From an uncultured Candidatus Saccharibacteria bacterium (GTDB lineage Bacteria > Patescibacteriota > Minisyncoccia > Phycocordibacterales > UBA12445), in the NCBI GenBank assembly GCA_964531375.1, contig CAZHDO010000001.1:2282-66281 (forward strand): a stretch of 64,000 nt of DNA, given 5' to 3'. The position numbers were made by a program, and so were the translations under genes. The number at the start of each line of letters is the position of its first letter. Positions within the stretch are counted from its first letter, which is position 1. Positions 9,093 to 41,639 of this stretch are shown piece by piece. The notes beneath the pieces are model-generated. The model saw nothing but the letters and a program-made list of their open reading frames with translations, did not search any database and was not told the origin of the DNA.

Positions 9093-10119
9093 TAAAATAA
9101 AAATCCTAGTTACAGGTTCTGCTGGTTTTATGGGTAGCCATCTTGTCGATGGCTTAGAGAAACTTGGACACGAAGTTTATGGAGTTGATGACCTTTCTGG
9201 CGGTTTTATGAGGAATGTTTCTAATAAGAAAAATTTTACAAAATTAGACCTTCGAGACAGGAAAAAGACCGCTAATTATATTGATAAATTAAAACCAGAG
9301 ATGATATTTCATCTTGCGGCCGATGCAACGGAGGGTAGAAGCCAGTTTACACCCTTTAGTGCCTTAGATAGAAACATCGGCGCATATATGAATCTTTTGG
9401 TTCCAGCAATAAAGAACGGTCTTAAAAAGATGGTTTTGACTAGTTCGATGAGTGTATACGGTGCACAACAAGTTCCTTTTGATGAAACCATGATCACACA
9501 ACCAGAAGACGTGTATGGATCTGCCAAGGCTTCAATGGAGATTTGTACAAGGGTTTTATCTAATGTTTATGGATATAGATATTTAATAATAAGGCCTCAT
9601 AATGTTTTTGGGCCAAGGCAAAACCTTTCTGATCCATATAGAAATGTTATTGGTATATTCTTGAATAGACTATTACACAATAAAAGTTTTTATATATATG
9701 GAGATGGTAAACAAAAAAGAGCTTTTTCTTATATTAATGACACGATACCACCAATGATTAGAGCTGCTTTTAATAAAAAATGCGAAGGTAAGACAATGAA
9801 TGTTGGAGGAGAAGAGGCAATTACCTTAAACCAACTTGCTAAAATAATTACGGAAGAATTTTTTGGGACAAAAGAAATTCCAAAGGAATTTATTCCGACA
9901 CATCTCCCGGGCAGACCACAAGAGGTTAAATATGCATACTCTAATCATGACCTAGCTTTGAAATTAATGGGTTTTAAACCAGAAACATCACTAAGGGATG
10001 GGTTGCGAGAGATGATAAAATGGGCCAAAGAAATAGGTCCGCAGGAGTTTGTTTATTTAAAAGAGCTTGATTTGGAAAATGATTTAGTTCCAAAGACATG
10101 GAAAGATAAACTTCTTTAA
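9082..10119 (+). CDS. NAD-dependent epimerase/dehydratase (extended SDR; nucleotide-sugar dehydratase or decarboxylase-like)
   Basis: ILVTGSAGFMGSHLVDGL is a Rossmann GxxGxxG motif. YGSAKASME is the catalytic YxxxK. The 345-aa length is typical of this family. Confidence 0.8.
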   Translation: MENNKIKILVTGSAGFMGSHLVDGLEKLGHEVYGVDDLSGGFMRNVSNKKNFTKLDLRDRKKTANYIDKLKPEMIFHLAADATEGRSQFTPFSALDRNIGAYMNLLVPAIKNGLKKMVLTSSMSVYGAQQVPFDETMITQPEDVYGSAKASMEICTRVLSNVYGYRYLIIRPHNVFGPRQNLSDPYRNVIGIFLNRLLHNKSFYIYGDGKQKRAFSYINDTIPPMIRAAFNKKCEGKTMNVGGEEAITLNQLAKIITEEFFGTKEIPKEFIPTHLPGRPQEVKYAYSNHDLALKLMGFKPETSLRDGLREMIKWAKEIGPQEFVYLKELDLENDLVPKTWKDKLL

Positions 10120-33516: not shown

Positions 33517-35760
33517 GTGCGCCTATCTCCAATTAGAATGAATAAAATAAGTGCAAGCACAGAAAGCGTGCTAAGAAATATAATCATAGGAGGGTTGTTT
33601 CTAGTGCCGTTTTTACCATTTATAGTTACAGGCTCGATGTTCTTTCCTTTTATCACAGGGAAGAATTTTGCTTTTCGCATAATCATTGAAATTATTTTTT
33701 CGATTTGGGCGATTCTTGCTGTTTTTGATAAGAGCCTTATTCCTAAGAAAAATAATTTACTGCTGGCTGTAGGTAGTTTTGTTGGAATAATCGCAATTGC
33801 TGATATTTTAGGGGTCAATTTTTATCGAAGTTTTTGGTCAAATTATGAAAGAATGGAAGGTTTAGTTTCTTTACTCCATATTTTTGCATATTTTATTTTG
33901 CTTATTTCTGTTTTTACAGAGAGTCTTTGGAGGAAATACTTTAAGGCTATTTTCATTTCAGGAATTGGTTTAATGGTTTACGGTGCGATACAGCTAATGG
34001 GTTGGGCGAACATTAATCAGGGCGGAGTTCGTTTGGATGCGACTTTTGGTAATACCATATACTTTGCCGTTCACATGTTGTTTATTTGTTTCTTATCAGC
34101 GCTCTTTCTTTTCCGAAACAAGATCGGGAATAATGCAAAAACCTGGTTTTATGGTTTGATGTCTTTGTTTTCTGCTTTTTTCCTTTTAGAAACTGCGACC
34201 AGGGGCACCGCTATTGGATTATTGCTTGGTATTGTAACAGCCGCACTCATCGTTTTCTATAAAAGTACCGGCCAACATAAAGAGATTGCAAAATATGTAA
34301 TGGGATCTGTTGTCGCTTTGCTTGTGATTTTCTTATTTGCAAGAAATTTAAGTTTTGTAAAAGAAAGCCCTATTCTTGGTAGATACGCTGAATTGTCCAT
34401 ATCAAGTGTCTTTAATCAGCCAAGATATATGGTTTGGAACATGGCTTTCAAGGGGTTTTTAGAAAATCCAATATTGGGTTGGGGGCAGGATAACTTTAAT
34501 GTAGTGTTTAATAAGTACTATGACCCAAGAATGTACGCACAGGAGCCATGGTTTGATAGGGCTCATGACGTATTTTTTGACTGGTTAATAGCTGGTGGTC
34601 TTCTTGGGCTTTTGTCTTACCTTTCTATTTTTGCAGTTGCTTTGTTTTTTATCTGGGATGAGAAAATAACACGAAGATTTACTCTTGTTGATAGAAGTGT
34701 GATTACGGGCCTTCTTGTTGGTTATTTCGTTCATAATATATTTGTTTTTGACAACCTTATGAGCTATGCGATGTTTTTCGCTATTATCGCTTATATTTAC
34801 AATGAAACTAGATATCAAGATGGTGATGTTAAATTAGAAGATAAAGGAGAAAGAAAGGTTGAACCTTTTCTCGAAGAAGAGTTTGCTGCTTACGTTGCAA
34901 TTTCTTTAGTGATTGTTGGCTTCTTTGGAACTATGTATTTTGTTAATGTAAAACCTATTCTTGCTTCAAAAACTCTCATTCAAGCGCTGTCTACAAGAAG
35001 CTCTTCGGTGAATGATATGAACCAAAGCTTAGATATGTTTAAAAAAGTTTTCTCTTACGGTTCTTTTGGGACCACAGAGGCAAGGGAACAATTAGTGCAA
35101 AGAGCAATAAGTATGTCTCGTGCACAAGATATAGATAATTCTATTAAACAAAACTTTTTCCTTCTTGCAAGAGATGAGATGGAAAAACAGATTGCTGCTA
35201 ATCCGTTAGACGCTAGATATCGGGTTTTCCAAAGCTCACTATTTTCTGCTTATGGTCTTGTTAGTGAAGCCATGAAGAATATTGAGATTGCAAGAGACCT
35301 GTCTCCTAAAAAACAAACTATTCTTTTTGAGCTGGTTGCTGCAAATATAAACAAGGGTGATATAGAGACTGCGCTGTCTATTGCTAAGAACGCTTATGAC
35401 TTGGAGCCAACTTTCGCGGAGTCTAGAAATATTTACACCATCGCTGCTATTTATGCTGGTAAAAATGACGTTGTAGTAGAATTACTAGGAACAAGTACTC
35501 CGCCAGTAGAAGATCGATTCATAAATGCTTATGTTGCAACAAAGCAATACAAGAAAGTTGCTGAGATTTGGTTAAAGAGGATCGAAATGGACCCAAAGAA
35601 TGCCCAGTATCATGTCTATCTCTCTGCGACATATTTAGCGGACAAGCAAAAGGAAAAATCAATTGAAGAGCTTAAAAAGGCGATTGAATTAAATCCAGCC
35701 CTAAAAGACCAAGCAACAAAATTTATAAAAGATATTAGAGCCGGAAAAGTTCCACAGTAA
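33517..35760 (+). CDS. O-antigen ligase/polymerase-like (Wzy_C) polytopic membrane protein with a C-terminal TPR repeat domain; GTG start at 33517 or ATG at 33538
   Basis: There are about 11 TM helices with a large loop (GWGQDNFNVVFNKYYDP) typical of the O-antigen ligase family. The C-terminal 250 aa carry TPR-like repeats (AYDLEPTFAE..., IELNPALKDQA). Confidence 0.7.
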   Translation: MRLSPIRMNKISASTESVLRNIIIGGLFLVPFLPFIVTGSMFFPFITGKNFAFRIIIEIIFSIWAILAVFDKSLIPKKNNLLLAVGSFVGIIAIADILGVNFYRSFWSNYERMEGLVSLLHIFAYFILLISVFTESLWRKYFKAIFISGIGLMVYGAIQLMGWANINQGGVRLDATFGNTIYFAVHMLFICFLSALFLFRNKIGNNAKTWFYGLMSLFSAFFLLETATRGTAIGLLLGIVTAALIVFYKSTGQHKEIAKYVMGSVVALLVIFLFARNLSFVKESPILGRYAELSISSVFNQPRYMVWNMAFKGFLENPILGWGQDNFNVVFNKYYDPRMYAQEPWFDRAHDVFFDWLIAGGLLGLLSYLSIFAVALFFIWDEKITRRFTLVDRSVITGLLVGYFVHNIFVFDNLMSYAMFFAIIAYIYNETRYQDGDVKLEDKGERKVEPFLEEEFAAYVAISLVIVGFFGTMYFVNVKPILASKTLIQALSTRSSSVNDMNQSLDMFKKVFSYGSFGTTEAREQLVQRAISMSRAQDIDNSIKQNFFLLARDEMEKQIAANPLDARYRVFQSSLFSAYGLVSEAMKNIEIARDLSPKKQTILFELVAANINKGDIETALSIAKNAYDLEPTFAESRNIYTIAAIYAGKNDVVVELLGTSTPPVEDRFINAYVATKQYKKVAEIWLKRIEMDPKNAQYHVYLSATYLADKQKEKSIEELKKAIELNPALKDQATKFIKDIRAGKVPQ

Positions 35761-35856
35761 AGTTTGAATAAAATATTTCTTGGTGTTATGATGTCTGTGT
35801 GAGTGTTGTTCGGTGATAAATATTTTATTGAACGGACCTCCATAAACAAGTACAGT

Positions 35857-35900
35857 GCAAACCCCTTCGTCTATTTATAGATGTCGGGGTTTTGCATTTT
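35857..35900 (+). terminator. Terminator hairpin after the ligase gene (gcaaacccc...ggggttttgc plus atttt)
   Basis: A 9-10-bp GC-rich stem with a 20-nt loop and a T-tract. Confidence 0.45.
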
Positions 35901-36288
35901 ATAAATGTAATGCTAAAATATCTAATAGAGTTACATTTAGTTAAGATTGGCGGAACGCTCACATTTTTTGTACTTGTGGAGGTAGTATCCGCCGATCTTA
36001 AGTAATTGAAATTTCTTTTAAAAAGGCGGAAAAATATTTCCGTCTTTTTTATTTTGTAAAATAGTTTATTTTAGATTTATTTTTCTAAAACATATTATTT
36101 TTAAATTTTTTCTTAAATATTTTTTGGAAAATTATAGAAAAAGTTATCCACATCTTACATTATTTTTTTATCTGTGAGATAATTAACAAATAGAGCGACA
36201 TCTTAATTAAGAATTTTAAAATATTTTTAAAATATTTTAAAAAATTAAAAAGGTCGGATGTCGTCTAATATCTAAATAAAAAAATAAA

Positions 36289-36369
36289 ATGGTAGTTAAA
36301 AAAGCAGTAAAGAAAGTTGTAAAGAAGGCTGCAAAGAAAGCAGTAAAGAAAGTTGCAAAGAAGAAATAG
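36289..36369 (+). CDS. Lysine-rich micro-protein (26 aa, MVVKKAVKKVVKKAAKKAVKKVAKKK), histone-H1-tail-like or cationic-peptide-like, with its own terminator
   Basis: Built from repeated gcagtaaagaaagtt(g/t)(t/c)aaagaag units and followed at 36385-36415 by a strong intrinsic terminator (aaaacctcc-aaat-gggggtttt plus T7). Preceded by the palindromic AT tract aaaatattttaaaatatttttaaaatattttaaaa. Confidence 0.4.
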   Translation: MVVKKAVKKVVKKAAKKAVKKVAKKK

Positions 36370-36384
36370 TATTTTTGCAAAAAA

Positions 36385-36415
36385 GAAAACCTCCAAATGG
36401 GGGTTTTCTTTTTTT
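36385..36415 (+). terminator. Rho-independent terminator after the micro-ORF
   Basis: gaaaacctcc-aaat-gggggttttc followed by ttttttt. Confidence 0.7.
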
Positions 36416-36488
36416 GTTGTCCAGCCTGTTATTTTAACCTTATTCTGTTATACTAGAAGCTAATCAGATAATCGTTATTTAAACATTT

Positions 36489-38990
36489 ATGTACATTTTT
36501 GATAAAATTTTTGGCGACAGGAGTACGAGAGAGATAAATAAAATAAAGCCGATTCTTGAGAAGGTGAATGGTTTTGAAGTTGAAATTAAAAAACTTTCAG
36601 ATGAGCAACTTAGAGAAAAGACTATTTATTTTAGAGGTAGACTGAAGACGGGAGAAACTTTAGAGGATATTTTACCCGAAGCTTTTGCTGTTGTTCGAGA
36701 AACTTCTTTAAGAACTCTTGGTCAAAGACATTATGATGTTCAGGTTTTGGGCGGAGTTGTCCTTCATCAAGGAAAGATATCGGAAATGAAGACCGGTGAA
36801 GGTAAGACTCTGGTTGCAACTTTGCCAGCATATTTGAATGCAATTAGTGGGCACGTTCATGTTGTTACTGTAAATGATTATTTAGCACGAAGAGACGTTG
36901 TTTGGATGGGGCAGATATATTCTTTTCTTGGATTATCGATTTCTGTAATTAATCATGACTCTTCTTTTCTTTATGATCCAAAACACACTGAAGTTGATAA
37001 AGAAAGAGACCAGCTTGGATCCTTTAAGGTTATTTATGAATTTTTAAGGCCATGTACAAGAAGGGAGGCTTATCAGGCTGATATTGTTTACGGAACAAAT
37101 AATGAGTTTGGTTTTGATTACCTCAGAGATAATATTTCTTATTCAGAGAGAGATATCGTACAAAGCTCGGAGGGTGTTACTGAAAAGATTGCTTATAATT
37201 TTGCAATAATCGACGAAGTGGATTCTATTCTTATAGACGAATCAAGAACCCCTCTTATTATTTCTGCACCAGCTGGAGAGTCAGAAGATCTTTATTCTTT
37301 GTTTGCAAACATTGCAGGACAGATGAAAGATGTTGAGGACTATGTGATTGATGAAAAACAAAGAGTCATTTCTTTAACTGATAAGGGTATAAGTAAGGCT
37401 GAAAGATTACTTGGTATCGAAAATATTTATACTGAGGGTGGTGTTAAGTATGTTCATCATTTGGAATCGGCTGTTCGTGCTAAGGCAATATTTATTTTAG
37501 ACAAAGATTATGTTGTTAAAAACGGCGAAGTAATAATTGTGGATGAATTTACTGGTAGGTTGCAACCCGGCCGAAGGTGGTCTGATGGATTACATCAGGC
37601 GGTAGAAGCTAAAGAAGGGGTTAAAGTTCAGAAGGAGTCTAGGACAATGGCTACAATCACTCTTCAGAATTATTTTAGAATGTATCAAAAACTTTCTGGC
37701 ATGACAGGTACTGGTCTTACTTCTGCTGAAGAATTTTTTAAAGTATACGGACTCGATACTGTTGCGATACCTTCACATAGACAGAATAAAAGAGAGGATC
37801 TTGATGATTATATATTTCAAACTGAGGACGGTAAGTTAAAAGCGCTTACAAGAAAAGTTAAAGAGCTTAACGAAAAAGGTCAACCTGTTCTTATTGGTAC
37901 GATATCTATTGAAAAAAACGAGATACTTTCAAAGTACCTAAGTCGCGAAGGTGTAAAACACAACGTTTTAAATGCCAAGAATCACGAACAGGAAGGACAG
38001 ATAATTGCAGAGGCGGGTAAAAAGGGAAGTGTTGTTATTGCCACAAACATGGCTGGTAGGGGGGTTGATATTAAGCTAGGTGGAGTGTTGGCTACAAAAG
38101 AAGAGTCTGATGAGATTAGGGAGCTTGGGGGGTTGTTTGTGCTTGGCACAGAAAGACACGACGCTAGAAGAATAGATAATCAACTAAGGGGAAGAAGTGG
38201 GAGACAAGGTGACCCTGGAGCGACCCAGTTTTTCGTATCTATGCAGGATGCTTTGATTAGAATTTTTGCGTCTGATATGGTTACAAACATGATGGGTAAG
38301 CTCGGGATTCCAGAAGACGAACCTATTCAAAACAGATTTATTACTAAGTCGATTGAGGGTGCGCAAACAAAAATAGAGGGAATAAATTTTGATTCCAGAA
38401 AACATCTTCTTGAGTATGATGATGTTATGAATATCCAAAGAAAGACTGTTTATGAAAAAAGAAGAAAAATTCTTTTGGGTGGTGATGTTTATTTAGCTGA
38501 ATATCTCGAGCAGATAATGGGTGAAGATATTGAGTCAAGAGAATTTGTAAAAAATTTAAGAAGCGAGATTGGCGATGTTAATTTTTTTGCTGGTTTGCGT
38601 ATGCTTAGTCTGCAGGTAATAGATATGATTTGGACAGAGCACCTTGAAACAATGGATCACATGCGCTCGAGCGTAAAATTAAGGGCTTATGGCCAAAGGG
38701 ACCCGCTTGTTGAATACAAAAAAGAGGGAATTAGGCTTTTTAGGGAGATTGAAAATGCTTTCGCTCACAATATATTAAGGCTTCTTCCTACCTTAAGAGC
38801 AAACCAAATAATTCTTGAGCCAGAAAAAAAGAAGTTGCAAGAAATACATGAATCTGCGAATGCTGTCGGTAATTCTGAAGAGGAGCAAAAAGAAGATATT
38901 AAGTCTCAAGAAAAAGAAATTGGAAGAAACGAACCTTGTTCTTGTGGAAGTGGAAAAAAATACAAGAAGTGTCATGGAAAAAATATTTAA
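36489..38990 (+). CDS. secA: Preprotein translocase ATPase SecA
   Basis: 833 aa containing MKTGEGKTLVATLPAYLNA (Walker A), DEVDSILIDESRTPLIIS, and the C-terminal zinc-binding motif CSCGSGKKYKKCHG. Confidence 0.96.
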   Translation: MYIFDKIFGDRSTREINKIKPILEKVNGFEVEIKKLSDEQLREKTIYFRGRLKTGETLEDILPEAFAVVRETSLRTLGQRHYDVQVLGGVVLHQGKISEMKTGEGKTLVATLPAYLNAISGHVHVVTVNDYLARRDVVWMGQIYSFLGLSISVINHDSSFLYDPKHTEVDKERDQLGSFKVIYEFLRPCTRREAYQADIVYGTNNEFGFDYLRDNISYSERDIVQSSEGVTEKIAYNFAIIDEVDSILIDESRTPLIISAPAGESEDLYSLFANIAGQMKDVEDYVIDEKQRVISLTDKGISKAERLLGIENIYTEGGVKYVHHLESAVRAKAIFILDKDYVVKNGEVIIVDEFTGRLQPGRRWSDGLHQAVEAKEGVKVQKESRTMATITLQNYFRMYQKLSGMTGTGLTSAEEFFKVYGLDTVAIPSHRQNKREDLDDYIFQTEDGKLKALTRKVKELNEKGQPVLIGTISIEKNEILSKYLSREGVKHNVLNAKNHEQEGQIIAEAGKKGSVVIATNMAGRGVDIKLGGVLATKEESDEIRELGGLFVLGTERHDARRIDNQLRGRSGRQGDPGATQFFVSMQDALIRIFASDMVTNMMGKLGIPEDEPIQNRFITKSIEGAQTKIEGINFDSRKHLLEYDDVMNIQRKTVYEKRRKILLGGDVYLAEYLEQIMGEDIESREFVKNLRSEIGDVNFFAGLRMLSLQVIDMIWTEHLETMDHMRSSVKLRAYGQRDPLVEYKKEGIRLFREIENAFAHNILRLLPTLRANQIILEPEKKKLQEIHESANAVGNSEEEQKEDIKSQEKEIGRNEPCSCGSGKKYKKCHGKNI

Positions 38991-39123
38991 GAAAGCTACA
39001 GAAATTTTGCACCATTTTAATTGCGCCCACTGTGGAAAGTGGTGGACAATCGGCGACGCCCCAGAGGAAAGAATAGAGTGGTTCTGTCCTTGGTGTGGAA
39101 AATTGCAGAAATACAATGAATAA
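38974..39123 (+). CDS. Small zinc-ribbon protein (49 aa; CxxC...CxxC), overlapping the secA stop
   Basis: MEKIFKKATEILHHFNCAHCGKWWTIGDAPEERIEWFCPWCGKLQKYNE. The longer ORF-track start at 38815 lies inside secA and is rejected. Confidence 0.35.
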   Translation: MEKIFKKATEILHHFNCAHCGKWWTIGDAPEERIEWFCPWCGKLQKYNE

Positions 39124-39517
39124 AATTGAATTAATCCAAAAAACAAAAGAATTAAATTTCCAAACAGGGGAATATGCGGTTTTTGGTAGCGCTCTTTTGT
39201 GCATTTGGGGAATTAGGGATTCAAAAGATATTGATATTATAGTTAATAAAAATCTTTGGGAAAGATGCTTAACTTCTGGAGAGTGGACAAGTGGCAAGGC
39301 CTTAAGTGGGGCAGATAAATTAGAAAAAGAAAATATTGAAATATTTAGAGAATGGAATCCTGGAAAATTTGACCCCAACGAATTAATAAAAAGCGCAAAT
39401 ATAATAGAGGACGTACCTTTTGTTGATGTGAAATATTTACTTGAATGGAAGAAACTGATGGGACGTGAGAAAGATATAAGTGATATTGAGTTAATTGAGG
39501 GGTATCTAAATAAATAA
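39116..39517 (+). CDS. Minimal nucleotidyltransferase (Pol-beta superfamily, MNT-like) protein
   Basis: FGSALLCIWGIRDSKDIDIIV matches the nucleotidyltransferase GS(x)nG...(S/D)DxDxxV motif. No HEPN partner is adjacent. Confidence 0.45.
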   Translation: MNKIELIQKTKELNFQTGEYAVFGSALLCIWGIRDSKDIDIIVNKNLWERCLTSGEWTSGKALSGADKLEKENIEIFREWNPGKFDPNELIKSANIIEDVPFVDVKYLLEWKKLMGREKDISDIELIEGYLNK

Positions 39518-40944: not shown

Positions 40945-41020
40945 TGGGCGCTACAAAACAAAACCACCCCAAATGTTTTCACATTTAAGGTGGTTGTTTT
41001 GTGCGCCCAGCAGGAATCGA
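40945..41020. repeat. Long near-perfect palindrome (arms about 34 bp) whose right arm is the 3' half of tRNA-Lys
   Basis: tcgattcctgctgggcgc-tacaaaacaaaaccacc...ggtggttgttttgt-gcgcccagcaggaatcga. The left arm, 40945-40962, is the reverse complement of the tRNA-Lys T-arm/acceptor at 41003-41020. Confidence 0.6.
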
Positions 41021-41075
41021 ACCTGCGACCATTTGCTTAAAAGGCAACTGCTCTACCAGCTGAGCTATGGGCGCA
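41002..41075 (-). tRNA. tRNA-Lys (anticodon UUU)
   Basis: The reverse complement reads TGCGCCCATAGCTCAGCTGGTAGAGCAGTTGCCTTTTAAGCAAATGGTCGCAGGTTCGATTCCTGCTGGGCGCA. It has a D-arm GCTCAGCTGGTAGAGC, anticodon loop CTTTTAA and T-loop GGTTCGATTCC. Confidence 0.8.
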
Positions 41076-41281
41076 TACAACAAAGACTACAATATCACAA
41101 AATACTTATTTTTCAATACCTCTGGGTGGGGAGGGGGTCGGTCGCAAATAAATTTTCTAGTGGAAATTTTTCGCGACCCCGGCTCGTATCGCCTTTGGCG
41201 ATATACTGCGCCTTTCGATTACCTCGCGCAAGCAAAGCAGTTTACTTGCTATCTGTCCCATATTTCGCTCCGCTCTATATG

Positions 41282-41365
41282 TGCCTGAGGAGGGAGTCGA
41301 ACCCTCAATCCCTTACGGGCGACAGATTTTAAGTCTGTAGCGTATACCAATTCCGCCACTCAGGC
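41282..41365 (-). tRNA. tRNA-Leu (anticodon UAA), class II with a long variable arm
   Basis: The reverse complement reads GCCTGAGTGGCGGAATTGGTATACGCTACAGACTTAAAATCTGTCGCCCGTAAGGGATTGAGGGTTCGACTCCCTCCTCAGGCA. Confidence 0.85.
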
Positions 41366-41440
41366 CTATTTTTATTTTAGCAGAAAATAAATCTTCTGCC
41401 AGGATTTCCAGATGGAAATCCTGAGGCCTGGGTGGGAATC

Positions 41441-41461
41441 CTTTTCCTTCAAAAATTTCTG
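41441..41461. repeat. Partial direct copy (about 20 nt) of the tRNA-Cys 3' end (gaggcctgggtgggaatc), preceded by the palindromic hairpin aggatttcca-gatgg-aaatcct
   Basis: It matches 41566-41586, with 125 bp between copies. Confidence 0.5.
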
Positions 41462-41567
41462 GTCACTGATGTGACATTGAAATTTTTTCATCCAAAGCCT
41501 GTCGTTTTAAAATAGTAAAGCAGTTTACTTTTTTAAAATCGCCTTCGATTCCCAATCGGGAACCTTG

Positions 41568-41639
41568 AGGCCTGGGTGGGAATCGAACCCGCGTATAAGA
41601 GTTTTGCAGACTCTTGCCTTACCACTTGGCTACCAGGCC
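41568..41639 (-). tRNA. tRNA-Cys (anticodon GCA)
   Basis: The reverse complement reads GGCCTGGTAGCCAAGTGGTAAGGCAAGAGTCTGCAAAACTCTTATACGCGGGTTCGATTCCCACCCAGGCCT. The anticodon stem AGAGT/ACTCT carries loop CTGCAAA. There is one T-stem mismatch. Confidence 0.7.

Follow-up and report, generated by a model that had tools for sequence, protein, structure and literature searches.

What lies in the long gap ahead of secA in the genome of an uncultured Candidatus Saccharibacteria bacterium? We analysed 64,000 nucleotides (nt) of this genome (GenBank assembly GCA_964531375.1, contig CAZHDO010000001.1, positions 2,282 to 66,281 of the forward strand), called the window here, in which positions 35761-36488 separate a Wzy_C/TPR gene from secA. 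An earlier note on this DNA had singled out the gap as unusually long (730 bp), and this was borne out: it measures 728 nt, and no gap free of RNA genes in the window is longer. The window lies within ENA contig ERZ4223250 NODE_65 (133.5 kb), whose recorded gene calls leave the gap empty. Each of the six elements that the note had listed was found in or near the place assigned to it, three of them with dimensions that are corrected below. One of the six, a 26-codon open reading frame (ORF) at 36289-36369, is part of a larger conserved unit, so far without annotation, that has a DnaA box and a new leader motif, and its product resembles the bacterial histone H1-like polycations in composition. 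The DnaA box, the promoter, the leader motif and the role of an AT palindrome as the inner hairpin of the leader had not featured in the earlier note.

A lysine-rich micro-gene conserved ahead of secA

We scanned 161 fetched secA loci (1.43 Mb; L-numbers below) for small ORFs with at least 33% lysine and at least 85% K/R/A/V/T/S/P/G. Such ORFs occur almost exclusively just 5' of secA and on the same strand, in L002, L004, L005, L006, L008, L009, L010, L082-L087, and L090, where they encode 13 to 76 residues. Beyond this slot the scan returned only an inverted copy in L015 and the C-terminal tail of SecA in L025. Two more loci, L162 and L163, were recovered by peptide similarity alone, and both contigs have secA directly downstream. 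Counting the window, the micro-ORF is thus present in 18 loci; in 17 of them it shares the strand of secA and closely precedes secA or hpf-secA, and in the 18th (L015) the whole unit is inverted and 2.4 kb from secA. All of these loci are Paceibacteria-like, with SecA identities of just 52% to 66%. The usual gene orders are murB-[unit]-secA and Wzy-like-[unit]-secA, and the upstream Wzy_C/TPR gene of the window is orthologous to those in L006 and L087. The order in L010 and L090 is murB-[unit]-hpf-secA, and other lineages of the Candidate Phyla Radiation (CPR) have hpf-secA without the unit. Across these Paceibacteria-like genomes the unit has been retained whole, and its flanks are nearly always murB or a Wzy-like gene on one side and (hpf-)secA on the other. 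Its components in the window are as follows.

36144-36152 (+): exact DnaA-box consensus TTATCCACA, preceded by AAAAG
36154-36183 (+): sigma-70-type promoter from a promoter scan, with -35 CTTACA, an 18-nt spacer and a TG-extended -10 GATAAT (TGaGATAAT)
36190-36288 (+): predicted 5' leader of about 100 nt, with helices P1 and P2, an unpaired GGTCGG and an A-rich stretch lacking a Shine-Dalgarno sequence, from folding
36289-36369 (+): micro-ORF encoding MVVKKAVKKVVKKAAKKAVKKVAKKK, 26 residues with a net charge of +13
36379-36414 (+): intrinsic terminator of the micro-ORF transcript; its 17-nt arms, 36379-36395 and 36398-36414, are 94% complementary, and a T-run comes next
36446-36454 (+): putative extended -10 for secA, TGtTATACT, recognised by eye

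The ORF at 36289-36369 is the sole lysine-rich ORF in the window. The earlier note had placed its 26 codons correctly and had described it as built from 15-nt units; the repeats inside it recur every 12 nt (4 codons). The sequence leading up to the AUG is A-rich and has no Shine-Dalgarno sequence, which is normal for this genome, in which strong Shine-Dalgarno sequences precede 2 of 46 window genes and most start regions are A/T-rich. Among the loci, a start codon and a stop codon stand at the edges of the purine-rich tract; the commonest start is ATG-GCN, and the start codon is ATG everywhere except in L083 (GTG). Amino-acid composition is kept among the loci and nucleotide sequence is not, and synonymous third positions differ among the repeats. 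The earlier note had allowed for a structural DNA element in which only the nucleotide repeats are conserved. The opposite was found, since frame, start, stop, composition and terminator are retained in the 18 loci and the repeats are not.

Fine-scale evolution could be followed only in the pair L002/L162 because the contig scans gave no closer SecA relatives. The two micro-ORFs differ by six synonymous and two non-synonymous changes (pS 0.32, pN 0.029, ratio 0.09) and by a 24-nt in-frame indel. AAG makes up a larger share of the lysine codons in each correctly framed micro-ORF than in the long genes of the same locus (mean excess +0.30, Wilcoxon p = 4e-4; 0.54 versus 0.26 in the window). A-runs in the micro-ORFs are also shorter than expected, the longest in the window being 6 compared with a simulated 8.5 (P = 0.018). 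Runs of AAA promote ribosome sliding, and the AAG enrichment and the short A-runs therefore fit selection on translation. As judged from these comparisons, the ORF at 36289-36369 is shown to be a genuine conserved gene under purifying selection at the protein level.

It is conceivable that the purine-rich repeats are instead a non-coding RNA or DNA element, such as an ARN-repeat binding platform or a structural DNA tract, in which the ORF is incidental. In its favour are the extreme brevity and low complexity of the ORF, the near-total lack of gene calls for it, and the conserved non-coding leader on the same transcript. Against this stand the lysine frame that always ends at the tract edges with a start and a stop, the low pN/pS and in-frame indel of the L002/L162 pair, and the synonymous variation of third positions under a constant amino-acid composition, which together make a non-coding element very improbable.

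The gene is invisible to standard annotation. A search with the L002 form of the peptide (46 residues) gave two weak matches, P0001 and P0002, both called proteins with over-extended starts, and these are the sole related entries found in a collection of 15 billion proteins; an exact look-up of eight family peptides in that collection found none present. The 76-residue L008 peptide had no match in this large protein collection, seven family peptides had nothing at threshold in Pfam and NCBIfam, and a PDB sequence search gave no meaningful chain match. The literature search found no paper on this gene or on lysine-rich micro-proteins in Patescibacteria. Lysine-rich micro-ORFs are systematically lost to gene callers and to trypsin-based proteomics. 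CPR/Patescibacteria genomes are tiny, and any conserved gene in them is likely to matter.

Promoter, leader and terminator of the unit

The upstream regions of the micro-ORF loci were aligned to find shared motifs. The 9-mer TTATCCACA recurs on the ORF strand 100 to 235 nt before the ATG, mostly with AAAAG ahead of it; of the 17 loci that could be assessed, 11 have it perfect and 15 have it with at most one mismatch, compared with a background of 0.023 perfect boxes per kb. In the control set, the 300 nt upstream of hpf/secA in 30 CPR loci lacking the micro-ORF, a perfect box is found in 0/30 and GGTCGR in 3/30. Within the window, neither the box nor GGTCG(A/G) is a general promoter element. 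In nine loci, 17 to 18 nt separate the box from a downstream -35-like TTGTGT/TTGTRY with GATAAT after it (TTGTGT-16/17-GATAAT), and it abuts the -35 in the window and in L015 (TTGACA-17-GAAAAT). Promoters of the DnaA regulon have the consensus TTATNCACA in or next to the promoter, and TTATCCACA abutting the window -35 agrees with this arrangement. A reading of the shared motifs as LexA or CodY boxes was weighed by eye and dropped.

DnaA is an established transcription factor (PMC8203912), and the unit resembles DnaA-controlled small genes such as Bacillus subtilis sda in having the DnaA-box consensus at the promoter of a very small gene (PMC8203912; clusters, PMC3245932). It differs from sda in its single putative DnaA site in place of a cluster and in its unrelated product. 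A DnaA box at a fixed phase to a promoter would rank among the first inferred regulatory links for uncultivated Paceibacteria.

Two other loci contain DnaA boxes in related settings. In L011 (6835-7100), a TTGACA-17-TATAAA promoter comes after AAAG-TTATCCACA, with a leader of about 200 nt between it and a gene that by eye has an RpoB-like N-terminus, suggesting that the box-plus-promoter design serves another gene in a CPR genome. In L038 (2780-3160), a metagenome-assembled genome (MAG) of the Peptococcaceae, the intergenic region from comFC to hpf-secA contains a DnaA-box cluster with two tandem pairs TTATCCACATTATCCACA plus near-boxes, suggesting that DnaA boxes are associated with the hpf/secA neighbourhood in a Firmicute as well.

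A perfect DnaA box in AT-rich, palindromic DNA of 17% GC could also indicate a chromosomal replication origin or a DnaA-titration site. The gap has a single box within one mismatch and no cluster, no dnaA is present in any locus, and in the relatives the box keeps a fixed phase to the promoter. GC skew points to the + strand as the leading strand over the whole 64 kb, with values of about +0.25 for + strand genes and about -0.03 for - strand genes on both sides of 36 kb; it does not change sign at 36 kb, and its replication-related component is positive across the whole window. The skew, the lone box and the lack of dnaA nearby speak against oriC, and an origin or titration site here is extremely improbable.

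Downstream of the promoter, the predicted leader is organised around two helices. In the fold of the window sequence, an outer helix P1 pairs 36191-36203 with 36256-36267 and encloses an inner hairpin P2, which is the AT palindrome. The earlier note had recognised this palindrome and given it 35 bp at about 36212-36247; it spans 29 nt (14+1+14) at 36214-36242. The sequence GGTCGG at 36252-36257 is unpaired, on the 3' side of the P1-enclosed loop. The motif GGTCG(A/G) is found in 15 of 18 leaders, 27 to 93 nt before the ATG. Complementarity between the 12 nt after the motif and the upstream 80 nt is stronger than in shuffled sequences (mean z -2.0, p = 4e-5) and also than in positional controls (p = 0.017), and the P1 sequences themselves are different in all loci. 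Between L002 and L162, all 16 of 16 P1/P2 pairs are kept, seven of them changed and three of these on both sides; a further 5' hairpin of the pair has compensatory changes too, as seen by eye. The leaders of this pair are 78% identical, compared with 72% for secA DNA and 48% for the spacer. We rejected GGTCGA as a -35 or a Shine-Dalgarno sequence, since its distances from the -10 and from the AUG vary and the regions ahead of other window genes show no enrichment of it. The leader, with its helix-enclosed GGUCGA, is put forward as a candidate for a new cis-regulatory RNA motif.

Comparison with Rfam at gathering threshold identified only tRNAs in the whole window and none in the gap. Over the gap at E-values up to 10, there were only sub-threshold matches, the best of which aligned on terminators. 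The raiA motif RNA (RF03072) of Firmicutes is likewise a stand-alone structured transcript upstream of hpf/secA, a likeness of position only, since it is non-coding and about 210 nt long, whereas the micro-ORF unit is coding. This RNA was found only in the Firmicute locus L053 (Sarcina sp.; 1939-2142, 199.6 bits), about 2 kb upstream of secA. Its model had no match in the window gap at E-values up to 10 and none at gathering threshold in L002, L006, L009, L010, and L015.

The earlier note had placed an intrinsic terminator right after the ORF (36385-36415), and this hairpin was recovered at 36379-36414 with its T-run. A GC hairpin with a U-tract follows the stop codon by about 0 to 36 nt in every copy of the micro-ORF. 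With a promoter and a terminator of its own, the micro-ORF fits the stand-alone transcription unit for a polycationic peptide that had been proposed earlier. Beyond the terminator, the relatives have -10-type boxes ahead of secA/hpf (in L006, ATGACA-16-TAAAAT between terminator and secA, 10/12), and similar extended -10 boxes precede secA in loci without the unit. A putative promoter of secA's own past the terminator suggests that the micro-ORF is not a SecM-like leader or an attenuator.

These features bear on the proposal, also made earlier, that the ORF encodes a leader peptide. As a regulatory upstream ORF, its translation would set terminator read-through into secA by way of lysyl-tRNA supply, polylysine stalling or SecM-like arrest. 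The arrangement is superficially like that of attenuators and of secM-secA, a small same-strand ORF directly before secA with a terminator between them, and Rfam gave a weak Phe_leader match (31.7 bits versus a gathering threshold of 55) that is owed to the terminator. An amino-acid attenuator has a fixed distance from stop to terminator and an antiterminator pairing; here the distance varies from about 0 to 36 nt, ORF length varies six-fold (13 to 76 residues), and no alternative antiterminator helix is apparent in the folds. The secM-secA, MifM and VemP leaders are alike in being small same-strand ORFs immediately before a Sec gene. They differ from the micro-ORF, which has no signal peptide, transmembrane or other hydrophobic segment and no conserved C-terminal arrest motif (the C-termini vary), and which has its own terminator in every locus, an arrangement that speaks against coupling of leader translation to a downstream ribosome-binding site within one transcript. 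The -10 boxes ahead of secA/hpf, of the same type where the ORF is absent, also argue against a leader, as do the loci in which hpf is next (L010 and L090) or the unit is inverted 2.4 kb away (L015), and the AAG enrichment steers clear of stall-prone, slippery A-runs. The leader-peptide proposal thus fails on its main points, and we consider it improbable.

What the peptide may do

The family peptides are made up entirely of K/R/A/V/T/P/S/G; acidic and aromatic residues are absent, and the net charge, in those members for which it was calculated, lies between +9 and at least +22. Charge density is the sole property common to the family. We favour, with some confidence, the reading that the right half of the gap, roughly 36144-36414, forms one autonomous monocistronic gene whose product is a polycationic nucleic-acid-binding micro-protein, possibly regulated by DnaA. 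A promoter beside an exact DnaA-box consensus would yield a transcript of about 225 nt that comprises the leader (P1 enclosing P2 and an unpaired GGUCGG), the 26-codon polylysine ORF and the intrinsic terminator. The peptide may act by charge density alone, like a free-standing tail of histone H1 or of a ribosomal protein, and could coat or condense DNA or fill grooves of rRNA. DnaA at the box would couple its synthesis to replication status, and the leader motif may provide post-transcriptional control, possibly autoregulation. The DnaA box points to a link with replication or the nucleoid; given the hpf/secA setting and the structured leader, the peptide may instead act at the ribosome. If the peptide is made, it would be among the shortest conserved bacterial proteins, a near-pure polycation, and a minimal model of how DNA or ribosomes are organised by charge alone.

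Several points weigh against this reading. The -35, TTGTGT or in the window CTTACA, agrees only moderately with the consensus, and the spacing from box to promoter in the window is unlike that of most relatives. DnaA binding is deduced from the match to a 9-mer alone, and with one good box per locus the site could belong to another factor. P1 was assigned per sequence by energy minimisation, and some of these assignments (L005, L008, L083, and L086) may draw on untranscribed bases. Members of 13 residues and the wide range of lengths are unusual for a structural protein, and the target could be DNA as well as the ribosome or RNA.

The closest parallels in composition are the H1-like proteins Hc2/HctB of Chlamydia, AlgP of Pseudomonas and those of Burkholderia and Bordetella, which share with the micro-ORF peptides an extreme K/A(/V/T/P) composition and short tandem repeats. 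Both groups also vary in length by gain and loss of repeats, as in Hc2 (PMC2848022) and in the 24-nt indel described above. The H1-like proteins are presumed to bind polyanions, that is DNA or, for AlgP, polyphosphate granules (PMC9239181), and by analogy the same may be presumed of the micro-ORF peptide. They are about 120 to 350 residues long, compared with 13 to 76 for the micro-ORF peptides, which have no non-repeat part. Only the 76-residue relative gave scores against the H1-like profiles, all far under the cut-offs (HC2, PF07382, 11.7 bits versus 40; the two NCBIfam profiles, NF038052 and NF038053, 11.4 versus 80 for hist_H1_lk_Burk and 10.1 versus 135 for the other), and the window peptide matched no H1-like profile at E-values up to 10. 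The likeness to H1 or HU tails that the earlier note had remarked upon holds for composition and for nothing beyond it. We know of no counterpart among H1-like proteins to the DnaA-box promoter, the structured leader or the position before secA.

An A/K-rich low-complexity module is also present in another gene of a micro-ORF-bearing genome. In L009, an ORF at 9215-9634 (+) has an A/K-rich, H1-like N-terminal segment of about 55 residues (MPAKKVTKKVAAKKAPKK...) fused to a globular C-terminal domain, suggesting that the module is fused to other proteins as well. It adjoins a 423-residue gene that by eye resembles glycoside hydrolase family 57.

A lineage-specific ribosome-associated micro-protein, either a tiny polybasic ribosomal protein or a hibernation-type factor, is unlikely but deserves serious weight; it would offset the reduced rRNA and ribosomal protein set of CPR ribosomes or replace HPF. 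The unit fills the slot before secA that hpf has in other CPR and Firmicute loci, it directly precedes hpf in L010 and L090, and structured leaders are typical of autoregulated ribosomal protein genes. Tiny polybasic ribosomal proteins exist: bTHX, bS22, bL37, and eL41 have about 24 to 35 residues, are almost purely basic and were long overlooked by annotation. These have a fixed length and a conserved sequence in each clade, whereas the micro-ORF peptides span a six-fold length range, are far more variable in length and sequence than known ribosomal proteins and gave no PDB chain match. A DnaA box would be unusual as a control of a ribosomal protein, and co-occurrence with hpf in three loci argues against simple replacement. 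The uS19 of Parcubacteria ends in an A/K-rich extension of some 25 residues (PMC9297842), which has the lineage and composition of the micro-ORF peptide and a similar length; the extension is fused to a ribosomal protein, whereas the micro-ORF stands alone as a gene between a promoter and a terminator of its own. This parallel counts for the favoured reading as well as for the ribosomal one.

The earlier note had also raised an amphipathic, antimicrobial peptide, which an episymbiont might direct at membranes of its host or competitors. The window peptide has a period of four residues (hydrophobic-hydrophobic-K-K) and a hydrophobic moment of 0.59, near that of magainin (0.51). This does not extend to the family, in which five members have moments of 0.03 to 0.30 and a mean hydrophobicity of at most -0.78, far under that of antimicrobial peptides; MAKRKKAAKKKKR and MAKKRKKAKKKASKKRRR, with moments in this range, are almost devoid of hydrophobic residues. 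A signal peptide is lacking, neither a transporter nor an immunity gene lies next to the unit, and the promoter contains a DnaA box. The amphipathic proposal does not survive these comparisons, and a membrane-active role is quite improbable.

Returning to the favoured nucleic-acid-binding micro-protein, a bolder form of it is speculative and rather doubtful: a free polylysine core micro-gene of Paceibacteria, with transcription set by DnaA and a new leader motif, might encode a minimal 'protamine' or ribosome-silencing factor that links replication to the state of the nucleoid or ribosome in ultra-small cells from the slot of HPF, perhaps taking over part of its role.

The left part of the gap and its surroundings

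The first 380 nt or so of the gap (35761-36143), with the terminator of the Wzy gene, an inverted repeat and a second terminator, are specific to the window and lie outside the conserved unit. The neighbouring genes and the features of this part are listed here.

33517-35760: Wzy_C/TPR membrane-protein gene, left neighbour of the gap
35761-36488: gap of 728 nt between the Wzy_C/TPR gene and secA
35853-35902 (+): terminator-like hairpin after the Wzy_C/TPR gene, with a fold of -23.4 kcal/mol (z -6.1) and a weak U-tract, AUUUUAU
35891-35919 (+): promoter-like site of the unit at 35926-36050, from the promoter scan
35926-36050 (+): small-RNA-like unit of about 125 nt, a long hairpin followed by an intrinsic terminator, with a fold of -46.8 kcal/mol (z -7.5)
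36020-36049 (+): second hairpin with a U-tract, a canonical intrinsic terminator of 13 pairs
36489-38990 (+): secA, the conserved right neighbour, with Pfam SecA_DEAD, SecA_PP_bind, P-loop_SecA, SecA_SW, and SEC-C

The hairpin after the upstream gene, previously put at 35857-35895, and the second hairpin with its U-tract, put at 36024-36050, are both present with the slightly different limits listed. The inverted repeat, described before as 35944-36000 with a 22-nt loop, is real and larger: its arms (35931-35954 and 35988-36011) are 24 nt each, 83% complementary and separated by a 33-nt spacer. Its 14-nt core departs from Watson-Crick pairing at one position, which is a U-G wobble on just the + strand. 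No counterpart of the 35853-35902 hairpin was found in the relatives, and no homolog of the 35926-36050 unit in any fetched locus. The latter unit matches no Rfam family at threshold; L20_leader (RF00558) scores 22.6 versus 58.7 on it. A search of the gap for HPF or MurB remnants found none. The GC content of the gap drops as low as 17% at 36000-36299, compared with about 35% for the genome.

In a SecA scan of genome contigs, the best relatives were Paceibacteria/Parcubacteria-type MAGs with at most 64% identity, and one scan each of genome contigs and metagenome contigs gave no full-length SecA closer than 62% to 64%. L162, which came from the protein search, is the closest relative, with 66% SecA identity over the 203 available N-terminal residues.

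Directly 3' of secA, an ORF of 140 residues (39095-39517, +) has no Pfam match, and neither has the 133-residue form on record. A cluster of tRNA-Lys(UUU), tRNA-Leu(UAA), and tRNA-Cys(GCA) is located at 41001-41639 (-). Its tRNA-Lys(UUU) is the sole lysine tRNA of the window, yet the micro-ORF is enriched in AAG.

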